From a virus (Duplodnaviria; Heunggongvirae; Uroviricota; Caudoviricetes), in the IMG/VR virus record IMGVR_UViG_3300021405_000008: 64,000 bases of DNA; one strand, 5' to 3'. Positions within the stretch are counted from its first letter, which is position 1; each line of letters opens with the position of its first letter. Shown here one piece after another: positions 17,765-60,463 of the stretch. The notes beneath the pieces are model-generated. The model did not search any database, was not told the origin of the DNA, and was given only the letters and a program-made list of their open reading frames with translations. The position numbers and the translations under genes are program-made.

Positions 17765-18712
17765 ATGATTGTCGATTACTCAACTGCTAGGCCCACAATG
17801 GCTGCACTGAAATCGGCAGGGGTAACCGCCGTCGGCCGGTACATCGGATGGGACTCTGTGCCCGGTTACAAGAGCATAGGGAAAAATATCACTACGGCCG
17901 AGGCCGCCGAACTGCGTGGTGTGGGGATATCGATCTTCCTTGCATTTGAATATGCAGCTAATGCGGCAGTAAATGGTGCTACGCAAGGCACCTCTGACGG
18001 CGGTCTCGCTATTGCGCAGCTAATTGCGCTTTCTGCTCCTATGGGTATGGCGGTCTACTTCGCGGTTGACTTCGATATTCCCGACTACGCCCCCGGCCTA
18101 CCCGATATCCCCGCTAATGCCCGGGCAAAGCTAGGGCCGGTAGCCGACTACTTCGCGGCTATCGTCAATCTGAAGCCACCGTATGAAGTCGGAGTGTACG
18201 GCGGATACTACGCGGTAAACCGACTACTCAATGCGGGCCTAGTCACAAAGGCCTGGCAGGCCACGGCATGGTCCGGGGGAAATCTTGACCCGCGTGCCGT
18301 TCTCTATCAGACTACCTCTGCTGCACCGGTATCGGGCGGCGATACCGATATCAGGGGGCATGCCACTACCGTTGAGGATTACGGGCAGTGGCCTCGTCCA
18401 TCAATTACTCCTCCGAAACCAGGACCAGTACCACAAGGGAGCGGAATGGCATACGTCCTTGATCTACCCGATAAACTCGCTCGCGTTCTGCCGGTACCGA
18501 CTGGATGCGCGAAGATGGTGGTATACGCTGACTCTGCGGCGTCAACTGTATCACCAATCATTAGAGTCGGTTTCGGCCCCGCATGGTCCGAGGTGGAGGT
18601 AAAACCAACATGGAGTAGTCCATCCGTAATTACCGTGCCTCCTGGTGAAAGTAGGGTGACTATTTCACGCCAGGATGTGGGATCGGTTCCAGTCACAATC
18701 GATTTCCCGTAG
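17765..18712 (+). CDS. putative endolysin, glycoside hydrolase-like (GH25/DUF1906-like) domain
   Basis: 315 aa; N-terminal VDYSTARP…AGVTAVGRYIGW resembles glycoside-hydrolase-like lysin domains; follows TM proteins. Confidence 0.45.
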   Translation: MIVDYSTARPTMAALKSAGVTAVGRYIGWDSVPGYKSIGKNITTAEAAELRGVGISIFLAFEYAANAAVNGATQGTSDGGLAIAQLIALSAPMGMAVYFAVDFDIPDYAPGLPDIPANARAKLGPVADYFAAIVNLKPPYEVGVYGGYYAVNRLLNAGLVTKAWQATAWSGGNLDPRAVLYQTTSAAPVSGGDTDIRGHATTVEDYGQWPRPSITPPKPGPVPQGSGMAYVLDLPDKLARVLPVPTGCAKMVVYADSAASTVSPIIRVGFGPAWSEVEVKPTWSSPSVITVPPGESRVTISRQDVGSVPVTIDFP

Positions 18713-19589: not shown

Positions 19590-20375
19590 CTAGCATCCAT
19601 CATAGGGTGCCCAGTTGTCAGCACCACCTGGGCTTGCCATCGCGTTATCGAATACTTGTGTCTGCTCAGCAGGCGTGGCATCACCGAATTCGGCGGCGCT
19701 ACCGCCATACTCTTCCCAGGTCGACTCACTGAACTGGTATAGGCCGTAATGCCCGCTGGAGTTCATGACCTGGCTGTTGCCGCCGGACTCGGCTCGAATC
19801 ACGCAAGACTGGAATGAGCTTGTTACTGCGTACCCCTGCTGGGAAGATTGGGGCGTAGCAGCTGCGGCTACGCTGTGATGTGTGCTCTGTACGGCTGCGT
19901 CTACGGTCACCACTGGTGCCGGAGCGGCCGGAGCAATATCACTTTGTGGCACCGGTGCATACCGGTGCGAAGCAGGGATGAGCAGATTCTGCCCGACTTC
20001 GATGTCATTGGCGTATTCGATGGACTTCTTGTTCGCCCAGTAGATAGCGGGCCAATCAGAAGCGTTGCCGTATTTGTCAATAGCAATGCTAGATAGGGTA
20101 TCACCGGACTCGACGCGGTAGTACTGGTTTGGCATATGAGCCAGGGTCGGGCGCGAGATCTCCTTTGGCGCGGTCGTGCCTCCAATCTTCAGATGATTGA
20201 TTTTCGCGCTCGGGCTCTGAACAGCAGCCGGCACATAGAATGAACTTCCGTTTGTCGCGCTGGCTGGTCCATTGAATGACTGATTCTTCATAGCCCCTGT
20301 TGCGAGGGCTCCGATGACAAGCACTGCTGCCGCCGATGTTGCGACAATGCCTGCTAGGCCACGCAGTCGATGCAT
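19590..20375 (-). CDS. secreted Rpf-like transglycosylase with LysM domain
   Basis: 261 aa; signal peptide; LysM (YRVESGDTLSSIA…); C-terminal CVIRAESGGNSQV…GLYQFSESTW…WAPYDGC Rpf/transglycosylase-like domain. Confidence 0.7.
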   Translation of the reverse strand: MHRLRGLAGIVATSAAAVLVIGALATGAMKNQSFNGPASATNGSSFYVPAAVQSPSAKINHLKIGGTTAPKEISRPTLAHMPNQYYRVESGDTLSSIAIDKYGNASDWPAIYWANKKSIEYANDIEVGQNLLIPASHRYAPVPQSDIAPAAPAPVVTVDAAVQSTHHSVAAAATPQSSQQGYAVTSSFQSCVIRAESGGNSQVMNSSGHYGLYQFSESTWEEYGGSAAEFGDATPAEQTQVFDNAMASPGGADNWAPYDGC

Positions 20376-42591: not shown

Positions 42592-42777
42592 TCTACCCAC
42601 CCCTGGGCGCCCGCAGCAACTTTAGGGAGGATGCTGCTTGCCACACTATCCCGTGTGGCAGGGCGGACTCCACTACGCCCACAGCACCCTCCGGTCCGGG
42701 GAGCGTACGGGCAGCAAGATGCCCGGCGGATACTCCAGCAGGGACAAAGCCCGTCGAGCAATACCCGTACGCTCCGG

Positions 42778-42849
42778 TGGGGAGAGCAGGATTTGAACCC
42801 ACACTCTTGGCTTCGGAAGCCAAAGCTCTATCCATTGAGCTACCTCCCC
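42778..42849 (-). tRNA. tRNA-Arg (anticodon CCG)
   Basis: Cloverleaf: GGGGAGG acceptor, GCTC/GAGC D-stem, TTGGC-TTCCGAA-GCCAA anticodon arm, TTCAAAT T-loop. Confidence 0.8.
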
Positions 42850-43236: not shown

Positions 43237-43362
43237 ACCTCCTCTGTGACATTTTCTGATGGCCGGGAGTACCCCTGGAGAACTACTCCCGGCCAACACT
43301 GTCCTCGCGGATACAGCATCTCTACCCGACCGCGCAGCGTCCTGCGCCGAGCCCAGAGATCG

Positions 43363-43437
43363 TAGCGGGGGCCAGATTTGAACTGGCGTGTATGCAGATT
43401 ATGAGTCTGCTGAGCGACCATACTGCTCGACCCCGCC
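43363..43437 (-). tRNA. tRNA-Met (anticodon CAT; elongator-type or Ile-lysidine possible)
   Basis: GGCGGGG acceptor, GAGC/GCTC D-stem, GCAGA-CTCATAA-TCTGC anticodon arm, GCCAG-TTCAAAT-CTGGC T-arm, discriminator A. Confidence 0.8.
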
Positions 43438-43969: not shown

Positions 43970-44385
43970 GAGTGATTTCTCCTCCAGTGCCGACGGTAGG
44001 CAGACTTAGTTCGAAAGCGCGAGGGGGCATGATTGCTGCCAGGGACCTCGCAGTTGTGGATCTGTACGTTTTTGCCGTGCCTCTCCTCTGTCCTCCACTG
44101 ACAGTAGTAGAACGTTCCGCCACGCTTTGGCTCAGGAACATACGATATGCCGAATAGCTCCGTGATCTGCCTTCGATTTAGCTCAACTTTGGCAGAGAAG
44201 TCATCAATGGCTATCATGACCTGCGCGTAGCCATTATCAGGCATAGTTGTTATCCAGAATGAATTTGACCCAGTCAGATGGCTCAGTGTTGGTATTGATG
44301 GCATACCTCGGGTATGCGCACGGAGCTTTCTGATACGCGAAGACTGCGGACGAGGAGCAGACGACGTGCCCGGATATTTCCCCAT
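43966..44385 (-). CDS. hypothetical protein with Cys/His cluster
   Basis: 139 aa; YYCQW…HNC…H…H. Confidence 0.3.
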   Translation of the reverse strand: MGKYPGTSSAPRPQSSRIRKLRAHTRGMPSIPTLSHLTGSNSFWITTMPDNGYAQVMIAIDDFSAKVELNRRQITELFGISYVPEPKRGGTFYYCQWRTEERHGKNVQIHNCEVPGSNHAPSRFRTKSAYRRHWRRNHS

Positions 44386-44812
44386 TAGTATCCTTCACCG
44401 ACCACGGGTCTGGTATTGCCGGAAGGTGCAAGTCGCGGAGATCATCGCCGACGATCGCATCCCAGTCATACTTGGTGTTGATCAGGCGATTCATCCAGTA
44501 GCAGATCTCGGTGCGCTGCTCGTCGGTCTTCGGCTGATGGCGGTTCGTGACGGTGTACTGGCTCATGAGGTAGCCGGTCGCGTCCCGCCATCCTACGCCG
44601 CCTGGGCGGCCCTCCAGGCACCACCAGGTGCTCTTGGCATCGATGTGGTCGAGGACCGCAATGTGGTTGTCAAGTCCGGGCTCGCCTAGCAGCGTCGAGC
44701 CAAAGTTGATCACTTCGGCTGCTAGTCCGCTGGTGCGAACACAGAGTACATCTCCGGCTTGCACCCCGACGGTATTGTCAGGAAGCTTGAGGGCAGTTGT
44801 AGTGCTGGTCAT
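44237..44812 (-). CDS. hypothetical protein, possible Cys-peptidase-like domain
   Basis: 191 aa; translationally coupled (ATGA) to upstream PT-rich membrane protein. Confidence 0.35.
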   Translation of the reverse strand: MTSTTTALKLPDNTVGVQAGDVLCVRTSGLAAEVINFGSTLLGEPGLDNHIAVLDHIDAKSTWWCLEGRPGGVGWRDATGYLMSQYTVTNRHQPKTDEQRTEICYWMNRLINTKYDWDAIVGDDLRDLHLPAIPDPWSVKDTNGEISGHVVCSSSAVFAYQKAPCAYPRYAINTNTEPSDWVKFILDNNYA

Positions 44813-45489
44813 GAAGGCGATCCCGATGGTGCGGTTGAAGTGGGGGCGATAGTCGTCAGAGTGGGGGTTGGAGTAGCTGTAGTAGGGGTGTCAGTCGGAC
44901 TGGTAGGAGGGGTTGATACTGGGCTGGTGGGAGGCGTTGTCGTAGGCGGCGCTGACGTTGGGCTACTGTGCGTCGGGGGAGCGGTCGTCGGCGCGGCCGA
45001 GGTAGGCGGCGGGGACGTAGGACGGCGCGTAGGCGGCGTGGTCGTCGGTGCCCGGGTAGGGACGGCCGACGCGGACGGCGCGGCGCTTACCGTCCGGCTA
45101 GGCGTCGCAGAGATTTTACTGGTGGCTGTGGTCGTCGGGGTAGAAGTGGGCGCTGTCGTATCCAGGAAGACGTTGCTCGGCAGTTTCTTCGGCGCAGGCT
45201 TAGCAGCAGGTGTGATTGCGATGCGTTTGGATGGAGTTGCCGTTGGATCTATGAATGCCTCCACGGGGCTAGATACCTGTCCCTTGCTGCTGACGGTCGG
45301 GGTCGTCGGAGTGCTCGATGGGTTGCTCTCGAACCTGGCCACCCCGATGTACCCCGCCGTCGCAACTGTGCCTACCCCGACGATAAACAGGATGAGAATC
45401 GTCGCGTTCCGGTACGGCCATCTCAGTTTCTTCTTCTGCTTTACGATCGGAATCCCGACCGTATCATCATGCCCTATATTTCTTGTCAC
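44809..45489 (-). CDS. membrane-anchored Pro/Thr/Ser-rich protein
   Basis: 226 aa; N-terminal TM ILILFIVGVGTVATAGYIGV then about 150 aa PT/S-rich low complexity. Confidence 0.45.
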   Translation of the reverse strand: MTRNIGHDDTVGIPIVKQKKKLRWPYRNATILILFIVGVGTVATAGYIGVARFESNPSSTPTTPTVSSKGQVSSPVEAFIDPTATPSKRIAITPAAKPAPKKLPSNVFLDTTAPTSTPTTTATSKISATPSRTVSAAPSASAVPTRAPTTTPPTRRPTSPPPTSAAPTTAPPTHSSPTSAPPTTTPPTSPVSTPPTSPTDTPTTATPTPTLTTIAPTSTAPSGSPS

Positions 45490-45695
45490 AGCAGTCCCTC
45501 CTCTGGGATTGTATGCCGATTATCACTTATGGTCTTTCGGCTTGTGTCCGCAAACGCCGCATTTCCTCTTCGGAATAAGGAATGACCCGGTCATTATGCT
45601 ACTAGCAAGTCTCGCTGTACCTACGGTAGCATTGCCTGCTGCACTTCCACAGCATCTCTTGCAGTTTGAGCAACCAGTCAGAACTCGTCTCATGG

Positions 45696-46727
45696 CTAGC
45701 TCCAGCAGTGCACGTAGTCGATGACCATCTTGGCTGATGGGAGCAGAGACGGGTTCGGGTTAACGCTGTTCGTACCGGTGCCGTTGGTCGCGATGTTGAG
45801 CAGACAGTACGAGCCACCGTTGTTGTCGAACGGCCACGGCGTAAGATTGGACGGCGTGGCGGATGCATACAGGGTATTGTCAATGAACAGTTGTACCGAA
45901 CCCTTTGCCCAGTCCAGGCGATAGGTATGGAACCCGCCGTCCATCTGGTTACTAGCGCGGCCACCCTGGCTAGCGGTAGCGATGCCGTTCCAGATTGTGC
46001 CCTCGGTGAAACCGGTACCGTAGTTCTCCATGACGTCGATCTCGCCGCAGCCCGGCCAGGAGCCTTCACCGAGCAGCCAGAACGCAGGCCAGCATCCCGG
46101 CACATTCGGTACCGCAATGGATGCCTCCCAGTGTCCGAACTGCTGGTGGAAGTTGCTCTTAATCCTCGCGCTGTTGAACCCGCCGCCGTCGGCCGGGGTG
46201 ACAGCAATAACGAGGTGCCCGTTGCCGTCGAGATAAGAGTTGGCAGTTGACTTGACGTAGTTCTCGGTCTCATTGTTTCCGCCGATAGAGGCCCCAGAAC
46301 CGACATCCCAAAGCCAGTTGGTCGCGCTGGGCAGTGTGCCCGCAGGGCCGTTGAACTCATCGGCAAAGGTGTACGTCGGAGGAGGTGTAACCACCACGGG
46401 CGGCGGGGTAGTCGCCGGGGGCTGGTGTGCGAAAGCTGGCTGCCCCCAACTACAAACCGGGGCCGTAGTTGCCGTGTGCTCGCCTACTGCGTTTCGAGTC
46501 CTCATTGATATCTCCGCATCTGATCCGGCCACTATTAGACCGGCAGCCGATATGCCGATTGTTGCCAGGAACCTCCTGCGGTCCCTGATTCTTACCTGCT
46601 GCGCCTCAGAAACTTCGGCCGAGGTAGGCCCCCGATCGCTGAACAGAATGCGATCGCGGTATTTATGTAGAGGAAGATGTATGCGCCATTTATTACGTCG
46701 TGGGCTGTCAATTGGATTCACCTCCAT
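45696..46727 (-). CDS. secreted glycoside hydrolase family 16 (beta-glucanase/laminarinase-like) with Tat signal
   Basis: 343 aa; DRRRFLATIGISAAGLIVAGS twin-arginine signal; GH16 catalytic GEIDVMENYG. Confidence 0.75.
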   Translation of the reverse strand: MEVNPIDSPRRNKWRIHLPLHKYRDRILFSDRGPTSAEVSEAQQVRIRDRRRFLATIGISAAGLIVAGSDAEISMRTRNAVGEHTATTAPVCSWGQPAFAHQPPATTPPPVVVTPPPTYTFADEFNGPAGTLPSATNWLWDVGSGASIGGNNETENYVKSTANSYLDGNGHLVIAVTPADGGGFNSARIKSNFHQQFGHWEASIAVPNVPGCWPAFWLLGEGSWPGCGEIDVMENYGTGFTEGTIWNGIATASQGGRASNQMDGGFHTYRLDWAKGSVQLFIDNTLYASATPSNLTPWPFDNNGGSYCLLNIATNGTGTNSVNPNPSLLPSAKMVIDYVHCWS

Positions 46728-47812
46728 GCCCAGGACTGTGACAACAAGTAGCCATTAATGGCAGACTTGAAGTCGGACAGTGTATCGAGTGCGTGAATTT
46801 CATAGCGGAACCGCTCGTTGCGAATGCCATTCCGCGTCGGGTCTTGGACGAATGCCGCGTGGAACGTGGTGGCGGCGTAGGAAACTAGCCATCCGCTTGG
46901 CCCGTCGTAACTCTCGTATGCTGTGCAGGTCTTCGGACAGGTATAGCCCAGGTCGGAGTATGGCACGACCCAGGCATCCCCGTTGAAACGACTGCCCAGC
47001 TCCGAGGTCAGCTCGGCAATGCCATCTGACATCTCCGACTTGACCCGGATAGTGTATGCTGCGTCGCTCTCGCCAGGTAGCTTACAGGCATTGAAGGCGA
47101 AGCAGTTCTTGTCATAGTCTTGCTGGTAATGCCCGTCCTGCCCAGCCTCGATACTAAACGAGTAGACGCTTGGACTTAGGGCCTTGAGCTGTGGCCATGT
47201 CAGATCCCATCCAATGTCGCCCTTTGGGCACTCCGGCTGGACATTTACCCCGCTGATCTTTGGGCCGCATTTGCCATTCGCGCCATCCGCGAACCCGGTC
47301 ACGAGGAATGCGACGGCTGTGAAACGGTAGTGGTAGAGGATCGGCTGTGCTCCCTCTAGGAAGTCACCGATGCCATTGTCTACCGTGATGAAGAATGGCT
47401 TCGTGGGTAGCTTGTACTGCTTGTTTGCTAGCCAAGCGAGGTACTGACTCATTGTCACTGTGTGGTAGCCCTGATCGTACATCCAGGCCATCTCGGCCGT
47501 GAACTGGGATGTACTCACGCTCTCATAGTCATGTGATTGGCAGATCGGAGCAGATGCCGCACAGTCATTATCCATCTCGTGATATACTAGGACCGGGACC
47601 TGCGATGCGGTGGCTACCGGAACCTTATGGCCGGCTACCTGCTTGACGCTCGCCAGGGTTGATGCCGGGGCGGTTGCCGATGATGATTCTGTATTGCTAG
47701 ATCCATACGTGAGCACCACGGTGTGTATCACCAGCATAGAGCCAGCGATTATGACTACTAGAATGGTGGAGAAGATGCCTATCATCATGTAACGGCGGCG
47801 ACGGAAGCTCAT
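46718..47812 (-). CDS. membrane-anchored polysaccharide deacetylase (CE4/NodB-like)
   Basis: Start at MSFRRRRYMM (ATGA coupling to upstream stop); TM; PVLVYHEM…FITVDNG NodB-homology-like motifs. Confidence 0.6.
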   Translation of the reverse strand: MSFRRRRYMMIGIFSTILVVIIAGSMLVIHTVVLTYGSSNTESSSATAPASTLASVKQVAGHKVPVATASQVPVLVYHEMDNDCAASAPICQSHDYESVSTSQFTAEMAWMYDQGYHTVTMSQYLAWLANKQYKLPTKPFFITVDNGIGDFLEGAQPILYHYRFTAVAFLVTGFADGANGKCGPKISGVNVQPECPKGDIGWDLTWPQLKALSPSVYSFSIEAGQDGHYQQDYDKNCFAFNACKLPGESDAAYTIRVKSEMSDGIAELTSELGSRFNGDAWVVPYSDLGYTCPKTCTAYESYDGPSGWLVSYAATTFHAAFVQDPTRNGIRNERFRYEIHALDTLSDFKSAINGYLLSQSWAWR

Positions 47813-49050
47813 GAGTCGATACCCACCTTCATCGCTTCGGCCTGCATGCCCTCGGCTTTGTACTGCGGGGCCCATAGATCGCCCATAGATGCACTTAGCA
47901 CCTTGTACCAGCTCACTACGCCCCAGGCGATAGCAATCAGGTTATAGATGATCATGTGCACGAGGAGGACCGCTAGCAGGGTATCTTTCCAGTCGCGCGC
48001 CCAGTCGTGTCCTCGGATGCGTCGGACATGGATGAATTCCACTAGCATGAGGAATCCCGTCAGTAGCTGCCACTTCCAGTTGAAGCGCCCGGGGTCGACG
48101 ATTGCCTCGGTACCGTTCAGGGCAGTCCATATCATCCAGAAGCTGATGTTCATGAACAGGAATCCGCGCTGTAGCCACTCGCGGTAGTTCAGGCGATTGC
48201 ACCCGAATCGAAGCAAGTCACCGCATGTGCCGGCTTCCCACTTGATACGCTGATACCAGAGTGACTTCCATGTCTTCATGCTACCGGTGTAGCAGAAGAC
48301 CGTTTCCGACATCCAGCATTTCCAGCCCTTCTGCCGGAGTCGGTATGTGAGGTGGTAGTCCTCGACTACGCTTTCGTAAGTCCAGGGGCCTTCCTGGTTC
48401 GGACGGGCGGCCACTGCTTGTAGAGCGATATTCCGGAACGCGCATCCAGTACCAGATATCACCCGGCACCAGCCACGGCTTAGGGTCTGTGTTGCGCTCT
48501 TTGCGAACTCGTACCTTTGCAGCCTAGGCAGGTAGCCCTTGCCCGTCATGATTGGCTGACTCGATGACCCTCCAAGTTGGGGATCATTAGCGAACTCCGC
48601 TTCCCAGTCGGCTACCGCGTGCGGAGGCATCGTAGTATCACCATCAGCGCAGATGATGATGTCGGCGGTCTGGCAGTACTTGTTCCATGCCATGTTTAGT
48701 GCGCCGGACTTGCGGTGGGTGTTGCCTTCCGTTTCGATCACCCGGACACCGTACAGATTGGCGATTACTACAGTCCAGTCCGTAGAGTTATCCGAGATAA
48801 CGATAATGTCATCCAGTCTTCTAGTCTGATCTAGAAGAGACTGAATTGTATTGCCGATGTCCTCTTGCTCATTGTGGGCCGGGATGAGAGCTACAATCCT
48901 CGGCGATAGCTTGTGTGGCACGGTATTTGCCAGCATAGATTCTAGATCGCTGCGGGTGGTAATGTCGCAGGCTGAAACTGCTCTGGCTGGATTGGCATGG
49001 TTGGTAGTCCTTGCCCTCATCCAGGAAAACTCATCGTTGCTTGGAGTCAC
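47809..49050 (-). CDS. processive family-2 glycosyltransferase (PgaC/NodC/cellulose-synthase-like)
   Basis: 413 aa; IPAHNEQEDI, ICADGDT (D,D,D), QRIKW (Q-x-x-R-W) motifs; multiple C-terminal TM helices. Confidence 0.75.
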   Translation of the reverse strand: MTPSNDEFSWMRARTTNHANPARAVSACDITTRSDLESMLANTVPHKLSPRIVALIPAHNEQEDIGNTIQSLLDQTRRLDDIIVISDNSTDWTVVIANLYGVRVIETEGNTHRKSGALNMAWNKYCQTADIIICADGDTTMPPHAVADWEAEFANDPQLGGSSSQPIMTGKGYLPRLQRYEFAKSATQTLSRGWCRVISGTGCAFRNIALQAVAARPNQEGPWTYESVVEDYHLTYRLRQKGWKCWMSETVFCYTGSMKTWKSLWYQRIKWEAGTCGDLLRFGCNRLNYREWLQRGFLFMNISFWMIWTALNGTEAIVDPGRFNWKWQLLTGFLMLVEFIHVRRIRGHDWARDWKDTLLAVLLVHMIIYNLIAIAWGVVSWYKVLSASMGDLWAPQYKAEGMQAEAMKVGIDS

Positions 49051-49254
49051 TTGGTTTCCCTTTGGTTATCGGCTATTTAGTCAGCCGAAGATAGTAGATC
49101 TTGACCTTCTCTGGTTCTATCTCGATCTCGCAAATATTGATATCCTCAAACGGCTGCGGCTGCGGCGCTTGCTTGCCGCTTATATACCAGCGCCATTCGA
49201 CACTAATCATAGCCAAACTCTAGGATTGAGTGGGTCAGGCTCATTCCTGACATA

Positions 49255-49300
49255 GCACTCGGCTCGTGCCCGGGCGGGGTCACGAGCCGAGTGGCTTTTG
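49255..49300 (+). terminator. strong hairpin with T-run (terminator-like, + orientation)
   Basis: 13-bp perfect stem CACTCGGCTCGTG/CACGAGCCGAGTG then GCTTTTGT. Confidence 0.4.
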
Positions 49301-49591
49301 TCCGCTCGGCCCGTCCGAGCAACGGGCCGAGCAGAACCAGCCCCGCAATCGGTACTGCCCGAAGCTATGCCTTTGCCGTCCCAGAGGAGGAGATTCGACA
49401 TTGGCTAGACTCTCCGTTCAGTCCGTTCGCGGGGCTGGTCTTTCCACCTCCCCTGATGCTCTGGACCCCAGCGTCACGACACGCTAGTTGCACCAGGGAA
49501 GCTTTGGCGGGACTCCTGAACTACGGGGTATCCAGGAGTCCCTGTCACTTTACCTGCCGAGGTGGGGCAGCAGGCAAAGCGGTCTAGCGGT

Positions 49592-49762
49592 TTAGTAGGG
49601 AGCTGCACCCTTCTTGCGGGTGACCGGGCGACCCCCGGCGGGCTTCGCAGTCGCAGCTGTGGCCTTGGCGGTAGCAGCCTTGGCGGCAGCCGGCCTAGCC
49701 TTGGTGGCGACCTTAGCGACTGGCGCAGCAGCCTTGGCCTTGGCAACCGGCTTGGCCGACGC
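49592..49762 (-). pseudogene. in-frame 57-codon Lys/Ala-rich continuation downstream of TAG (readthrough extension or recently truncated tail)
   Basis: Same frame stays open to TAA 49592-49594: ASAKPVAKAAAPVAKVATKARPAAAKAATAKATAATAKPAGGRPVTRKKGAAPY. Confidence 0.35.
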
Positions 49763-49789
49763 CTAGGCAACCGGCTTGGCCGACGCCTT
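49742..49789. repeat. perfect 24-bp tandem duplication differing at one base (Lys AAG vs stop TAG on - strand)
   Basis: ggcaaccggcttggccgacgcct(a/t) x2. Confidence 0.8.
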
Positions 49790-50296
49790 GGCGGCGGGCT
49801 TGGCCTTAGGCGCAGCAGCCTTGGCGGCCTTGGCCGCCGCAGCCTCGGCCTGACGCTCGGACCGGCGCTCCTTGTTGAAGGCCGATCGCTGGAACTCCAT
49901 GCGGGCAGTACCAGCGATGGCGACTAGGCGAACCGGGTCATCCGCGCCAACCTCAGCGATGGAAGTACCAGTGGGCTCGAAGATGGCGAAGTCCATCCAT
50001 GCAGCAAAGTCCTGCATGACGGGTGTGATGGGCTTGGATGCGTACGGGGTGTAGTCGGGGGTGTCGTCGTCTTCGTCATCCTCGTCGTCGTCATCCTCCT
50101 CTTCATCCTCGTCCTCATCCTCCTCCTCTTCATCCTCCTCTTCATCGTCCAGCTCGTCGTCCTCGTCTTCCAGTTCCTCGTCGTCTTCGTCTTCCAGTTC
50201 CTCGTCCTCCAGCTCCAGGTCGTCGTCGACCTCTTCTGGTTCCTCGACTGGCGCAGACTTGGCTTTGGACTTGGACGTGGCAGTGCGGGTGGCCAT
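49763..50296 (-). CDS. highly acidic protein (about 60-residue poly-Asp/Glu block) with Lys/Ala-rich C-terminus; alternative start 50686
   Basis: ATG 50296 preceded by GAAGGAGAAGG RBS; EEPEEVDDDLELEDEELEDEDDEELEDEDDELDDEEEDEEEEDEDEDEEEDDDDEDDEDDD; ends AKPVAKASAKPVA at TAG. Confidence 0.5.
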   Translation of the reverse strand: MATRTATSKSKAKSAPVEEPEEVDDDLELEDEELEDEDDEELEDEDDELDDEEEDEEEEDEDEDEEEDDDDEDDEDDDTPDYTPYASKPITPVMQDFAAWMDFAIFEPTGTSIAEVGADDPVRLVAIAGTARMEFQRSAFNKERRSERQAEAAAAKAAKAAAPKAKPAAKASAKPVA

Positions 50297-50666
50297 AACC
50301 TTCTCCTTCAGGGGTCTTACATTTTTGAGACGTAGTGGAGCGATAGGCTTATCGTACCGTACCGCCGGACGCGCCGCTACCGGAACGGGGCGATGAGGTC
50401 GATTACTTTCGGTATTTCCGGGGCCATGCTCAAGGATTATCGACGCGAGTGACCCCTCTTCAATGAGGAATCGGGCGGGCTCTCGGCTTCTGACATGGAC
50501 CGCAAAATACCCCTGACTAGACGACCTGGCCGATATCCCATAGTTCCAGGCGGATCGCACAAGCATCCCCGCAGCATCAGGTGTCTCTTCATATTTCTCC
50601 TTGATGTACTGCTCTGCGGATCGGCCGGTCATGGGCCTGGTGAGCGCCCCATATATCTTCCAGCCA

Positions 50667-50891
50667 TTAATCCTCGTCAGTGACATCTGCCTCGGACACC
50701 TCCTGGAACACCCTGGACTCTGTGTGGATGATATTAATGTTTCGGTCCTCTGCCCCGATAGCTATCTCTGCTGACAACTCGGCCGCACTCGTGGCATGAA
50801 TAATCTTGCCCCACGATATGGCATCGAGTGGCTTGTTCATTGGGCGGATCACTCGGTATATGACCGACCGCTCGATGATTACTTCGCTCAT
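50667..50891 (-). CDS. hypothetical protein
   Basis: 74 aa ORF. Confidence 0.3.
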   Translation of the reverse strand: MSEVIIERSVIYRVIRPMNKPLDAISWGKIIHATSAAELSAEIAIGAEDRNINIIHTESRVFQEVSEADVTDED

Positions 50892-51649
50892 AACAGTATA
50901 ACCCTTCCTATGAGGGCGTCCATGGCTTCCTCGACCCCCAGTGTTCCGTTTCTTGCCCGACGAGTTATGCTAGCCATCTTCAGGCAGCCCTGGTACTGCC
51001 AGCAGCCCTGCCAGTAGACTCGCTTCCGGTACTTCGCGTGTAGCTTCCGCATACCGGGTAGATTATCATCATCAATCGCTGGCCAGATATCATGCCAGGC
51101 GAAATCCCATTTAGTCCCACGTGGCCATTGCATATCATATGCATCGCCACTATGAATGGTAACCCTGTCATCTGTTATGAGTGGCCTAACAAGATCAACA
51201 ATTGCTTCGTTATGTTCCACAACGTCAATGTGTGATATCTTGTACTGGAGTGCACCGTGTACTGCTACACCAAGACCAAGCCCGTTAATGAGCAGCCTAA
51301 TGCCAGGACCACTATCCAATTCGGCCCACCAGAGCCTATTGAACAATGGTGTGTGTTCCATTATCTCGGCCCGAGTATCACTCATCCATATCTTACGGAG
51401 ATTAGAACCATTTTCACCAGCACCAGGCACAGTCTCGACTAGTCTAGTGAATGTACCCGAGCCCGGGTCACGATCCATACCTTCCTTAGCTATGATCTCT
51501 GCCCTATGCTTGTCAATCTTGCCGATGCTGAATTTCTCAATGGAGAATCTGCCGAGCTTGGCTTCTGGATAATTCAGCTGGAATTTCTTCCATTCTGTAT
51601 TCGCATCTAGCTGATCGATAGCTTCCCTGACAGTTATCATTTTCCCCAT
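50888..51649 (-). CDS. hypothetical protein, possible Rossmann-fold SAM methyltransferase
   Basis: 253 aa; LLINGLGLGVAVHG…DVVEHN…HSGDAYD. Confidence 0.35.
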   Translation of the reverse strand: MGKMITVREAIDQLDANTEWKKFQLNYPEAKLGRFSIEKFSIGKIDKHRAEIIAKEGMDRDPGSGTFTRLVETVPGAGENGSNLRKIWMSDTRAEIMEHTPLFNRLWWAELDSGPGIRLLINGLGLGVAVHGALQYKISHIDVVEHNEAIVDLVRPLITDDRVTIHSGDAYDMQWPRGTKWDFAWHDIWPAIDDDNLPGMRKLHAKYRKRVYWQGCWQYQGCLKMASITRRARNGTLGVEEAMDALIGRVILL

Positions 51650-58797: not shown

Positions 58798-59099
58798 GCC
58801 TTCCTAATTGCACTCGGGTGAATTTCTGGATCGGGTTCCCCGGTGAACAACCACTCTGTTGTCTCGCCGGACAGCTGAACATTCTCGCCAGTCACGCTCC
58901 GAGTTTCATGGTTGCCCGAGTTTTCCGATTCCATTTTTCTCCATTTTGAAATTCTAGCGGGAGGCAGTTTTGAACTATATCCGACTAACCCTATCGGGAA
59001 TAACGGATACATAATGCCTCCGCTTATGAATGTAACCCAGCATATTAGCGCTACCCCTGTGGCCAGAAGTATCGTGAGTGTTACCAATCTAATGTTCAT
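58773..59099 (-). CDS. small membrane protein
   Basis: 108 aa; N-terminal TM helices. Confidence 0.35.
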   Translation of the reverse strand: MNIRLVTLTILLATGVALICWVTFISGGIMYPLFPIGLVGYSSKLPPARISKWRKMESENSGNHETRSVTGENVQLSGETTEWLFTGEPDPEIHPSAIRKAWDRLWRR

Positions 59100-60463
59100 A
59101 ATTCTCCCGTATATTCCCCCGCATAAGTACGGATAGCATCCGTGATCCTTTGATGGATCGGGTTTAGCTCGAATGGCTGCCTATTCAGGATATCCACGGT
59201 GCGCTTCAAAACTCGCTGCGGAACTTCCACTAGTGTATCGTCAAGAAGTGACCAGCTCAGCTTATTGAGGGCTGATCGGATATGCCAATCATCGCCGTTT
59301 CGGCAAATGGCTTCTAGTTCGCGGAATAGCCCAAGACTCTCGTACGGATATCCTAGTTCCATATCGAATACATCTACTGCGGGGATCGGCGAGTCGATCA
59401 TGGCCGCCGTCTCGAATGCGTTGAATAGCGGCGATACTTCCCCTGCAGTCTCATTGTCATAAAGCCCCGGAAACGACACCTCCTCGTAACCAGGGTCATA
59501 GCCGCTTATGTAGATAGGAGCGCAGGATAGATTTGATTCGAGAGTGCCAATTGCAACGTCTAGAAGGCTGACTGGCCATCCCAGATCATTAATGGCGTGA
59601 ATTAGGAACTGATCAAGTTTGGCACCGAGAGACGCCGCGAGGAGGAGCTGGGATGACTCAAGAGCTGACTGCACGTAGAATACGATATCCGAGCTATGCA
59701 GCCTAACTATGCCATCCTCGGTATTGGCCCATTTCTTGAGCTTTGTATAGAAGATTGAATTGTCGATAACGTGGGTGAACCTGGCGGCGGAAACCAGCAT
59801 TTCAGCGCAGGAACTGCTTGCGTAGCACTCCGCAGCACGCTTCGATGCAGAGTAGATTTCGGGCGAATAGGGGCGAAGCGCTTTGCCAGTAGAGGCACAA
59901 ACCACCTGCGGAATGCCACTCATGGCCGCTGAATCCAGAACGTTCCTAGTGCCAAACAGATTAGTTGTTACCGTGCGATGCACCTCGATTTCGGCAAGAG
60001 ACGGGCTGTGCTGCGCGGCTACATGGAATATGATATCCGGACGGACTTCTGCTATAATCTCGTCTAGACGTCCACGGTCCCTAATGTCACATATCATGTA
60101 TTCCGCGCTACGCTGCGCCGTCCAGTTGACTGTGATACCCCGGCTAATGCTAACTAGCCGATCTGGCCGATACTTAACCAGCTGCGACATGAGCATCGAC
60201 CCGACGCAGCCGGTACCACCGGTAACAAGGATAACCGCACCGCCTAGCTTGTTCTGGAGCAATTGCTCCGGCAATGTAATGCTTCTATTCTGTATCTCAA
60301 GAAAACGCTTATATTCTGCGTGTGCGTCCGGCTTGGCGGCTATTAGCTGTTTCGTGAGAAATTTCAGATCATTGATTTCGCCGATACCAAGTTCAGCCTT
60401 GTGCGGTGGCACAGCCCGCTTCATTTCTGAAATTACTTCTGATGCAGTCATCACAAATATCAT
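59096..60463 (-). CDS. NAD-dependent nucleotide-sugar epimerase/dehydratase (CapD/PseB/WbpM-like polysaccharide biosynthesis protein)
   Basis: 455 aa; VILVTGGTGCVGSML (TGxxGxxG), catalytic YSASK. Confidence 0.7.
   Translation of the reverse strand: MIFVMTASEVISEMKRAVPPHKAELGIGEINDLKFLTKQLIAAKPDAHAEYKRFLEIQNRSITLPEQLLQNKLGGAVILVTGGTGCVGSMLMSQLVKYRPDRLVSISRGITVNWTAQRSAEYMICDIRDRGRLDEIIAEVRPDIIFHVAAQHSPSLAEIEVHRTVTTNLFGTRNVLDSAAMSGIPQVVCASTGKALRPYSPEIYSASKRAAECYASSSCAEMLVSAARFTHVIDNSIFYTKLKKWANTEDGIVRLHSSDIVFYVQSALESSQLLLAASLGAKLDQFLIHAINDLGWPVSLLDVAIGTLESNLSCAPIYISGYDPGYEEVSFPGLYDNETAGEVSPLFNAFETAAMIDSPIPAVDVFDMELGYPYESLGLFRELEAICRNGDDWHIRSALNKLSWSLLDDTLVEVPQRVLKRTVDILNRQPFELNPIHQRITDAIRTYAGEYTGEL

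Follow-up and report, generated by a model that had tools for sequence, protein, structure and literature searches.

The 64,000-nucleotide stretch of viral DNA analyzed in this study (IMG/VR record IMGVR_UViG_3300021405_000008, hereafter the window) belongs to a soil phage of about 107 kb that infects actinobacteria and carries a four-gene cassette. The genes encode a family 2 glycosyltransferase (GT2; gene 1), a protein with the fold of carbohydrate esterase family 4 (CE4; gene 2, here called X), a 39-residue membrane protein (gene 3), and a family 16 glycoside hydrolase (GH16; gene 4). We consider it probable that the cassette is a phage-borne, synthase-dependent glycan module that originated in an actinobacterial cell-envelope pathway. 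The three larger minus-strand open reading frames (ORFs; Table 1) and both of their overlaps were read directly from the DNA: at 47812-47809 an ATGA joins the GT2 stop to the X start, with GAAGGTGG just upstream, and at 46727-46718 X and the GH16 gene share 10 nt, ATGGAGGTGA. Gene callers run on identical contigs chose the ATG at 49020 over the GTG at 49050 as the start of gene 1. A preliminary description of this DNA had presented the three frames as a translationally coupled and complete polysaccharide operon in a phage. Its family calls, the coupling, and the phage location stood, and none of the findings that it had named as overturning its interpretation was made. The proposed fit to poly-beta-1,6-N-acetylglucosamine (PNAG) was weakened, that to a canonical CE4 enzyme did not stand, and neither did completeness, as a fourth conserved gene, for a small membrane protein, and a linked nucleotide-sugar enzyme had been missed.

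The cassette resides in phage DNA. Phage genes flank it on both sides, it lies within the replication-gene block and on the same strand as the replication genes, and a scan of the window's proteins identified a tape-measure protein with a transglycosylase domain, an endolysin, an SNF2 helicase, RtcB, ThyX, ParB, a family-A-like DNA polymerase in two parts, a PD-(D/E)XK nuclease, and methyltransferases. The lysis region, with the endolysin at 17765-18712 and a transglycosylase-like gene at 19590-20375, is separate from the cassette, and no integrase or repressor was found among the window ORFs scanned. The operon sequence was identical in two more independent assemblies, an ENA contig of 107,109 bp, which differed from the window at 1 base over 21,095 bases, and a Logan contig from another run. 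The source samples have the accessions ENA ERZ27253566 and SRA SRR7093795. Fusion of host DNA to a phage contig through misassembly or binning would agree with the bacterial origin of the nearest GT2-X relatives outside phage-like contigs and with a GC content of the operon slightly above the window mean. However, the phage genes on both sides and on the same strand, the recurrence of the same sequence in three assemblies made independently from different samples (one reaching 107 kb), and the different phage backgrounds occupied by related cassettes all argue against it. The GC content at third codon positions of the three genes (0.67-0.69) likewise equals that of the helicase and RtcB genes of the same phage, and the composition of the operon falls inside the range of the phage's other early genes. 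Such a fusion is scarcely credible, and host contamination was excluded for practical purposes. A nucleotide search of positions 44000-51000 against reference phages returned no match, so the comparison was made through proteins. PADLOC returned no defence-system match, and Rfam reported tRNA alone in the window at the gathering threshold.

Judged by its profiles and motifs, gene 1 is a synthase-type GT2. It matched PF00535 (2.1e-19), PF13632 (4.9e-15), and PF13641 (6.3e-14), all above the gathering scores, and contains DGD at residues 136-138 (48637-48645), VEDY at residues 229-232 (48355-48366), and QRIKW at residues 267-271 (48238-48252). Within an alignment of 89 GT2 homologues, D136, D138, E230, D231, Q267, R268, and W271 were invariant, and DxD, ED, and QRxxW are signatures of the synthase branch of GT2. 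These matches upheld the earlier call of a GT2 with D,D,D and QRIKW motifs. The AlphaFold2 model (pLDDT 89.5) placed a cytosolic GT-A domain ahead of interface and transmembrane helices (residues 261-282, 289-318, 325-344, and 364-385). The best Foldseek match in the PDB was the hyaluronan synthase (HAS) of a Chlorella virus (9e-15, query TM-score 0.63), followed by Xenopus HAS1, Chs1, and BcsA; yeast and Candida chitin synthases were among the matches, and query TM-scores ranged from 0.5 to 0.63 across Cv-HAS, XlHAS1, Chs1, and BcsA. The structural comparison that had been proposed earlier thus placed the fold nearest HAS, chitin synthase, and BcsA. In a viral structure library, full-length matches to the model came from giant eukaryotic viruses only, while phage entries matched only the GT-A domain. 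We infer that gene 1 is processive and that its channel is completed by helices of partner proteins. A Pfam search detected no cyclic di-GMP receptor domain in the cassette proteins, and no riboswitch was detected with Rfam.

The named relatives of gene 1 pair with CE4 proteins; they include IcaA, PgaC, MatB-like bifunctional enzymes, and a GT2 on a Levilactobacillus plasmid. Against the PgaC/IcaA equivalog TIGR03937, gene 1 scored 88.8 bits (3.6e-25) with a cut-off of 422.3, a comparison that does not establish it as PgaC. The Levilactobacillus relative, on plasmid pl12113-1 of the brewery isolate Levilactobacillus brevis TMW 1.2113 (locus L034, 2863-5268), is a GT2 of 406 aa with 26.7% identity that is followed by a polysaccharide deacetylase, and the pair is distinct from the gtf-2 beta-glucan synthase of the genome paper on those strains. 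Identification of this plasmid hit (H54, the one examined among the Levilactobacillus and Lacticaseibacillus plasmid hits) as the gtf-2 beta-1,3-glucan synthase was considered and rejected, as it is a 406-aa GT2 with a deacetylase beside it.

X has an N-terminal membrane anchor (residues ~6-39) followed by a domain of extracytoplasmic type, and eight of its cysteines are invariant or nearly so in the family; the anchor and the conserved cysteines together fit an extracytoplasmic domain. The protein ends after the CE4-fold domain and has no C-terminal GH153. Searched against Pfam, X matched no family at E <= 0.01, including PF01522 (Polysacc_deac_1). A homologue search covered 5.8 billion proteins, and 119 of the 120 matches listed had no precomputed Pfam domain; the other (P0116) matched PF16656, not PF01522. 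Of the profiles suggested in the preliminary description, PF00535/PF13641 and PF00722 therefore matched their genes, but PF01522 did not. Among NCBIfam models, PgaB (TIGR03938) gave 59.4 bits (2e-16) with a cut-off of 321.9, and IcaB (TIGR03933) gave 28.4 bits (1e-6) with a cut-off of 248.35; these sub-threshold similarities, in PgaB to its N-terminal deacetylase domain, were the sole leads from sequence. The family comprised 60 representatives at E <= 1e-30 among 1.84 billion, within a superfamily of about 11,700.

An AlphaFold2 model of X built from an alignment of 107 homologues reached a pLDDT of 93.2, and its 13 best PDB matches in Foldseek were all CE4 proteins of the PgaB/IcaB/BpsB/PplD/BA0330 group (E ~1e-13 to 1e-9, target TM-score up to 0.79); the next match beyond these had E ~1e-2, and the profile search was concordant. 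The predicted structure confirmed a NodB fold of the circularly permuted PgaB/IcaB subgroup, with PgaB, BpsB, and IcaB as the nearest structures. The putative catalytic base D145 was invariant and the putative acid H78 at least 90% conserved in the 107 X sequences, and both were invariant across outgroups; H78 aligns with the His of the PgaB-type YH(D/S). In the X family an invariant Asn follows D145, and the two motifs read T(V/F)DNG and (I/L)EAGxxGH, as against TVDDG and FHAGxxGH (in longer form FAFHAGxxGH) in the outgroup relatives. Mapping of the second CE4 motif from single PDB-chain alignments was ambiguous, and the position was settled by aligning full-length outgroup relatives.

Gene 3 encodes a single-pass protein of 39 residues, LTAHDVINGAYIFLYINTAIAFCSAIGGLPRPKFLRRSR, from a TTG start that lies 6 nt past GGAGGTGA. 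Its ORF falls within the 5' part of the long GH16 reading frame but is read in a different one, and it was found intact in a gap-free alignment of seven loci (the window and the related loci L007, L008, L028, L029, L030, and L031). The seven proteins share a short N-terminus, an 'FLY' motif, a hydrophobic helix, and a basic tail of the 'PRP' type, and the ORF was called as a gene in L007, L028, and L029. The differences between the window and L007 numbered 7/6/19 at codon positions 1/2/3, a pattern that indicated a coding frame. On this comparative evidence, the ORF is a genuine gene, embedded in a second frame where the GH16 signal has its weakly constrained n-region. Its product is probably an accessory synthase subunit, in analogy to PgaD and IcaD. 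Positions 46592-46727 appear to be dual coding, with the 39-residue gene inside the n-region of the GH16 twin-arginine translocation (Tat) signal.

Gene 4 matched PF00722 (2.9e-16; 59.9 bits against a gathering score of 22), and its EIDVME motif at residues 229-234 (46026-46043) keeps ExDxxE intact, aligns with EIDIME of 2hyk, and is conserved in homologues; its earlier assignment as a GH16 with this motif was confirmed. The best PDB match was 2hyk, an actinobacterial endo-beta-1,3-glucanase (2e-34), followed by 9vmv, 3atg, and many laminarinases (2e-34 to 1e-14). Mycobacterial Rv0315 orthologues were also among the relatives, and lichenases and carrageenases were far weaker, so by similarity the enzyme is laminarinase-like. 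In the long form, a Tat signal (46515-46580) precedes an MRTRN...CSWGQPAF segment, a Pro/Thr linker, and the catalytic domain. The twin-arginine segment, RRRFLATIGISAAGLIVAGSDA, occupies residues 50-71. Inclusion of this segment (DRRRFLATIGISAAGLIVAGSDA in the GH16 frame) requires a start at 46727 or 46721 and a 50-residue n-region that overlaps the small ORF. The alternative start at M75, which has GGAG upstream, yields a product with no signal, and gene callers were split on the same sequence, one choosing 343 aa and another 269 aa. M75 as the sole start, with the Tat segment spurious, was rejected: twin-arginine signals precede '(M/L)RTRN...CSWGQPAF' in the homologues P0242, P0246, P0247, P0251, P0253, P0254, P0260, P0262, and P0267, and P0242 has Leu at the M75 position. 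The Tat signals of these close homologues and the Leu of P0242 suggested that the signal is a family feature and that the long form is the better reading; M75 is kept as an alternative start.

The pairing of GT2 and X was strongly conserved. Among 26 fetched loci that include the upstream flank, GT2 lay directly upstream of X in 25, or in 23 of 24 once two duplicates of the same contigs were dropped. Phage-like members, all on metagenomic contigs and including the window, share the order GT2, X, 'FLY' small protein, and Tat-signal protein, the last being GH16 on at least five contigs (the window, L007, L028, L029, and L031). Flanking genes vary among the phage-like contigs, which suggested that the cassette moves as a module. 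The preliminary description had called the operon unusual for a virus, and this held among reference phages, but the cassette is not unique, as it recurs on several metagenomic phage-like contigs. On the 167-kb phage-like contig L007 (5940-14120), the order was GH16, GT2, X, the small ORF, GH16, a PMT_2-type GT-C glycosyltransferase, a second GT2 with a GT21 match, and GH16; one of the extra GH16 copies has a lipoprotein-type Tat signal. The GH16 of L029 (9201-11405) is a 734-aa fusion protein whose N-terminal ~450 aa form a multi-pass membrane region.

Bacterial GT2-X members came almost entirely from metagenome-assembled genomes of uncultured Acidimicrobiales, Streptosporangiaceae-like bacteria, and other Actinomycetota, and were 30-56% (GT2) and 40-53% (X) identical to the window proteins. 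Four of these loci (L020-L022 and L026) have a distant GH16 adjacent to X on the opposite strand. A second, divergent X paralogue (27-30% identity) directly follows X in L017 (9402-10097), L019 (1230-1838), L025 (9403-10095), and L027 (9015-9719). Cultured actinophages (Sparcetus, SilentRX, and Cantare) have a simpler GT2 version, 41-43% identical, and a tblastn search for X in reference phages matched mislabelled bacterial contigs only. Usually in the bacterial loci, and also in the cultured actinophages, GT2 is followed by a protein of 49-63 aa in which (M/I)YG...L(A/P)xTG precedes a hydrophobic helix and a tail of basic residues; it constitutes a minimal sortase substrate, lacks a signal peptide, and weakly matches NCBIfam NF058583, 'LAXTG motif-containing small protein'. 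A sortase with TLxTC was found nearby in 9 of 17 bacterial loci, and in L011-L013 it lies between GT2 and X. We found no description in the literature of the bacterial system of GT2, LAxTG protein, sortase, and X, of the GT2 with LAxTG protein in the cultured actinophages, or of the phage cassette, and no account appears to exist of a synthase tied to its own dedicated sortase and mini-substrate. From these comparisons, the cassette is recurrent in uncultured soil actinophages and probably derives from a bacterial GT2-X system.

About 10 kb upstream of the operon and on the same strand, the window encodes a short-chain dehydrogenase/reductase (SDR) of 455 aa that matched PF02719 (1.2e-27). Its best NCBIfam match, below the cut-off, was PseB, a UDP-GlcNAc 4,6-dehydratase (6.6e-19). 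Full-length or near-full-length orthologues with 43-47% identity adjoin GT2-X in L009, L031, and L008, and this repeated linkage suggested a further role of the phage in supplying or altering the sugar donor. The SDR is a candidate linked gene that probably supplies a modified nucleotide sugar, and its similarities lean toward a sugar derived from an N-acetylhexosamine (HexNAc).

A sequence of events can be proposed in which the GT2 would take up a nucleotide sugar at the cytoplasmic face of the membrane, perhaps one made or modified by the PseB/CapD-like enzyme, polymerize it into a beta-linked chain, and thread the chain across the membrane. The channel would probably be completed by one transmembrane helix each from X and the 39-residue protein, in the manner of PgaD and IcaD for PgaC and IcaA. 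On the outer side, X would modify the nascent chain with its disulfide-rich CE4-fold domain, most likely by hydrolytic deacylation with the retained Asp base and His acid and an unusual Asn-Glu-His site. Cleavage or trimming of the polymer would then fall to the Tat-exported GH16, a task performed in other systems by BcsZ, PslG, PelA, and the C-terminal domain of PgaB. The surface of the infected cell would be altered in this way during infection, which the position of the cassette in the replication-gene block supports, as it suggests expression before lysis. Candidate benefits to the phage include receptor masking or superinfection exclusion, aggregation, and altered release. As to the polymer, a HexNAc-containing beta-glycan has a roughly even chance, a beta-glucan a much smaller one, and strict PNAG a smaller one again. 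The HexNAc side is represented by the IcaA/PgaC/MatB-like relatives of GT2, the origin of X among PgaB/IcaB-like deacetylases, and the resemblance of the SDR to UDP-HexNAc dehydratases, and the beta-1,3/1,4-glucan side by the laminarinase-type GH16.

Several observations weigh against the reading of the cassette as a glycan synthase module. The laminarinase type of the GH16 and the PNAG-like character of the GT2/X pair indicate polymers of different kinds, and the host of the phage is uncultured. In a profile search against the PDB, gene 1 matched PcManGT first (9e-16), ahead of chitin, hyaluronan, and cellulose synthases; PcManGT is a minimal cellulose-synthase-like enzyme that is not known to be processive. 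Gene 1 also has no N-terminal transmembrane helix, unlike PgaC, NodC, and HAS. The glycanase is perhaps exchangeable, as another secreted protein with a Tat signal takes the place of GH16 in L008 and L030. The start of GH16, and hence its export, is not certain from the sequence comparisons: in L007, the closest related locus, the protein begins at the equivalent of M75 and the Tat segment is absent, and in L028 the segment is in the GH16 frame without a canonical start after the X stop. The Tat signal had been called unmistakable, and it is indeed in frame and shared by close homologues, but its start codon is uncertain and one close relative lacks the segment. In L028 the Tat segment shares the frame of X behind a single TGA, and recoding (a frameshift or readthrough of the stop codon) or non-canonical initiation may occur there.

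The metal site of X bears on the same question. The predicted triad is Asn146-Glu222-His228 throughout the family, replacing Asp-His-His, and by its motifs X is not a canonical CE4 deacetylase; lacking the canonical triad, it may not be a deacetylase at all. The two coordinated changes (Asp to Asn and His to Glu) shift negative charge between ligand positions, and X may well retain a metal site together with hydrolytic activity. The NodB fold supported the earlier view of X as a deacetylase-like protein, but the missing PF01522 match and the altered triad did not, and together these two features leave de-N-acetylation by X plausible rather than proven.

Other explanations concern the polymer itself. 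A beta-1,3 or mixed-linkage beta-glucan of the curdlan-like kind, with GH16 as the cognate enzyme and X as an O-deacylase, a binding or escort protein, or a transferase, is unlikely. It would account for the match of GH16 to actinobacterial beta-1,3-glucanases (2e-34) with ExDxxE intact, for the recurrence of GH16 beside GT2-X in loci of both phages and bacteria (three times in L007), and for the altered metal site of X, which permits a changed function. However, the named relatives of GT2 are synthases of HexNAc polymers and not of beta-glucans, the Levilactobacillus hit proved to be a GT2 paired with a deacetylase rather than gtf-2, X keeps the CE4 catalytic Asp and His, and the SDR family acts mostly on UDP-HexNAc. 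Strict PNAG, with GT2 as a PgaC/IcaA orthologue and X as a PgaB/IcaB de-N-acetylase, is decidedly unlikely, even though the best curated matches were PgaC_IcaA (3.6e-25) and PgaB/IcaB (2e-16 and 1e-6), the nearest structures of X were PgaB, BpsB, and IcaB, the named relatives included IcaA, PgaC, and MatB-like proteins, and the SDR was most like UDP-GlcNAc 4,6-dehydratase. The equivalog cut-offs were far from reached (88.8 against 422.3 and 59.4 against 321.9 bits), the triad of X is Asn-Glu-His, and no homologue of PgaD, IcaD, or IcaC and no GH153 was found. The partner hydrolase is a laminarinase-type GH16, which is not known to hydrolyze PNAG; dispersin B belongs to GH20 and the C-terminal domain of PgaB to GH153. 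The product of a 4,6-dehydratase would be a 6-deoxy sugar, for which a 1,6 linkage is impossible. The analogy to PNAG and Nod-factor pathways drawn in the preliminary description was thus preserved in the PgaB/IcaB-subgroup fold and the PgaC-like relatives, but not in the type of GH16 or in the equivalog scores.

The roles of the individual proteins can also be read differently. X, with its altered Asn-Glu-His site, might serve a purpose other than de-N-acetylation, for example coupling the nascent glycan to the sortase-anchored (M/I)YG...LAxTG mini-peptide, and thereby to the cell wall, in an undescribed actinobacterial envelope-glycan pathway that the phage rewired with a new small subunit in place of the sortase substrate, GH16, and a nucleotide-sugar enzyme; we regard this as rather unlikely. 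If true, a pathway captured by phages would coat the infected cell anew with a polymer of phage specification and be the bacterial-virus counterpart of the chlorovirus hyaluronan or chitin coat. It is quite unlikely that the GT2 is not a polymer synthase and instead makes a glycolipid or lipid-linked sugar or glycosylates the wall (in the manner of Gtr or TarP), with X and GH16 remodeling the existing wall. The presumably non-processive PcManGT as best PDB profile match, weak GT21/ceramide-glucosyltransferase matches, the missing N-terminal helices, and a weak GtrB-like match in PHROGs would suit such an enzyme. However, the GtrB-like match covers only residues 51-147, in the GT-A part, QRxxW and ED are invariant, the whole-chain fold is nearest HAS, CHS, and BcsA, and the GT2 is strictly paired with an extracytoplasmic CE4-fold protein and with a small membrane protein, an arrangement like that of synthase complexes. 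GH16 could, lastly, be independent of GT2-X, serving lysis or release by acting on a host envelope glucan and lying next to X through modular shuffling. The other Tat-signal proteins in its place in L008 and L030, the extra copies in L007 (one with the lipoprotein-type signal), and the envelope-degrading enzymes already in the phage repertoire (the endolysin and the transglycosylase-like protein) agree with this role. It is nevertheless improbable, as GH16 is translationally linked to X and the small ORF in the window, keeps the same order in five phage-like loci, and stands beside GT2-X in four bacterial loci, where a role in lysis makes no sense. The phage-borne glycan module accordingly remained the reading that we favor.

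Table 1. Positions of the cassette genes, of putative functional residues in X, and of linked or related features (window coordinates unless a locus is named).
Feature	Position	Strand	Remarks
Gene 1, GT2	47809..49050	-	413 aa from GTG 49050; 403 aa from ATG 49020
Gene 2, X	46718..47812	-	364 aa; start within frame 46718-47875
Gene 3, small membrane protein	46592..46711	-	39 aa; nested out of frame in GH16 5' region
Gene 4, GH16	45696..46727	-	343 aa long form; 269 aa from ATG 46505
X, putative catalytic acid H78	within 47576-47587	-	PgaB catalytic-acid position
X, putative catalytic base D145 and N146	within 47372-47383	-	motif 1
X, E222...H228	47129-47152	-	second motif
SDR, Polysacc_synt_2 (CapD/PglF/PseB-like)	59096..60463	-	455 aa; ~10 kb upstream of operon, same strand
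Structured untranslated region	49240..49560	-	just upstream of gene 1; five stem-loops
Mini LAxTG proteins, bacterial loci	L004 7760-7933; L006 7749-7925; L011 7155-7304; L013 6988-7137; L017 7074-7262		
Mini LAxTG proteins, phage loci	L001 6170-6322; L002 6068-6223; L003 6062-6226		Sparcetus gp66; SilentRX gp78; Cantare gp96

The DNA around the operon has further features. The 321-nt structured untranslated region upstream of gene 1 has a minimum free energy of -186.7 kcal/mol (z = -10.9 on the minus strand vs -6.1 on the plus strand), and its inverted repeats include GGGACTCCTG/CAGGAGTCCC at 49509-49542. It matched no Rfam family, had no homologue in the fetched loci, and had no second copy in the window. 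It may combine the terminator of the upstream gene with an operon leader, and its membership in the operon is uncertain. Within 49595-50686 (minus strand), the frame of a 307-aa acidic protein with a long Asp/Glu run ends at a TAG (49763-49765) inside a 24-nt tandem repeat. The sister contig L032 has AAG at this position, as the sole difference in 21 kb, and its protein is 364 aa long with a basic tail rich in Ala, Lys, and Pro. This difference indicated that the acidic-protein gene of the window is either a nonsense variant or a sequencing or assembly variant at the repeat.

Beginning 2 nt past the GH16 stop, a 56-codon ORF at 45523-45693 (minus strand) has two CxxC pairs (CSNC...CGVC) of zinc-ribbon-like appearance; it was called by neither gene caller and matched no family. 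Two genes with a 4-nt overlap follow the operon at 44237-45489 (minus strand). One product, of 226 aa, is membrane-anchored with a long tail rich in Pro, Thr, and Ser. The other, of 191 aa, has a His...Cys arrangement reminiscent of permuted NlpC/P60-type amidases, a resemblance supported by no database match, as searches of the PDB, Pfam, and NCBIfam returned none. The pair may extend the cell-envelope block. Just downstream of this block, the phage encodes tRNA-Arg(CCG) at 42776-42849 and tRNA-Met(CAT) at 43362-43437, both on the minus strand.

Provided that the cassette is active, infected soil actinobacteria would present a polymer specified by the virus, with possible effects on superinfection, aggregation, and the soil biofilm matrix. 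The cassette also exposes a compact CE4-fold family outside Pfam with a coordinated Asp-to-Asn and His-to-Glu change at the metal site, a bacterial parent system that unites a polysaccharide synthase, a dedicated sortase, and a tiny substrate, and a clear case of a small gene out of frame within the n-region of a signal peptide. Phages are known to modify the surface glycans of their hosts by single sugars, through glycosylation of O-antigen or teichoic acid. Our search of the literature found no phage description of a full synthase-dependent module that unites a synthase with a membrane subunit, a glycanase, and a modifier acting outside the cytoplasm.

Among known bacterial systems, PgaABCD of E. 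coli and IcaADBC of staphylococci share with the cassette the PgaC/IcaA-like GT2 motifs, a partner of the PgaB/IcaB CE4 subgroup, a small membrane protein, and an associated glycoside hydrolase. The cassette differs in falling short of the equivalog level, in its Asn-Glu-His triad, and in being phage-borne. Its small protein, with a single helix, shows no sequence relationship to PgaD and IcaD, its hydrolase is a separate GH16 with a Tat signal rather than the GH153 of PgaB, and it has neither a porin nor IcaC. In Streptomyces, MatAB produces a PNAG-like glycan for hyphal aggregation, and MatB is a bifunctional deacetylase/GT2. The tie between an actinobacterial GT2 and a CE4 protein is common to both systems, and bifunctional deacetylase/GT2 genes are among the relatives of the cassette GT2; however, identity is 24-31% over part of the GT2, the cassette places the activities on separate proteins, no MatA equivalent was identified in it, and it includes GH16. 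A further comparison is with the cultured actinophages (Microbacterium phage Sparcetus gp65-66, Arthrobacter phage SilentRX gp79-78, and Brevibacterium phage Cantare gp95-96), which encode a GT2 with a mini LAxTG protein. These phages and the bacterial clusters share with the cassette a homologous GT2 and a tiny single-pass protein with a basic tail, whereas in the cassette X is followed by the 'FLY...PRP' protein, a sortase motif is missing, and GH16 is an addition, and the cultured phages have no X.

The closest viral analogue is found in the chloroviruses, whose hyaluronan synthase (PBCV-1 A98R) and chitin synthase (CHS of CVK2) are membrane GT2 enzymes that are expressed early and cover the infected cell in polysaccharide (PMC5408694). 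Chloroviruses also encode nucleotide-sugar enzymes and matching glycanases, and the function of their HAS/CHS fibres is likewise still unsettled (PMC5408694). Cv-HAS was the top structural match of the cassette GT2, although identity is ~12%, the host is a eukaryotic alga, and the chlorovirus systems have no CE4-fold partner, operon, or small membrane subunit. By encoding a synthase along with the extracytoplasmic modifier and the hydrolase of its polymer, the cassette follows the logic of BcsA/BcsZ, of PelF/PelA of the Pel system, and of PslG of the Psl system, in which the hydrolases BcsZ, PelA, and PslG belong to GH8, GH166, and GH39, whereas that of the phage cassette belongs to GH16.

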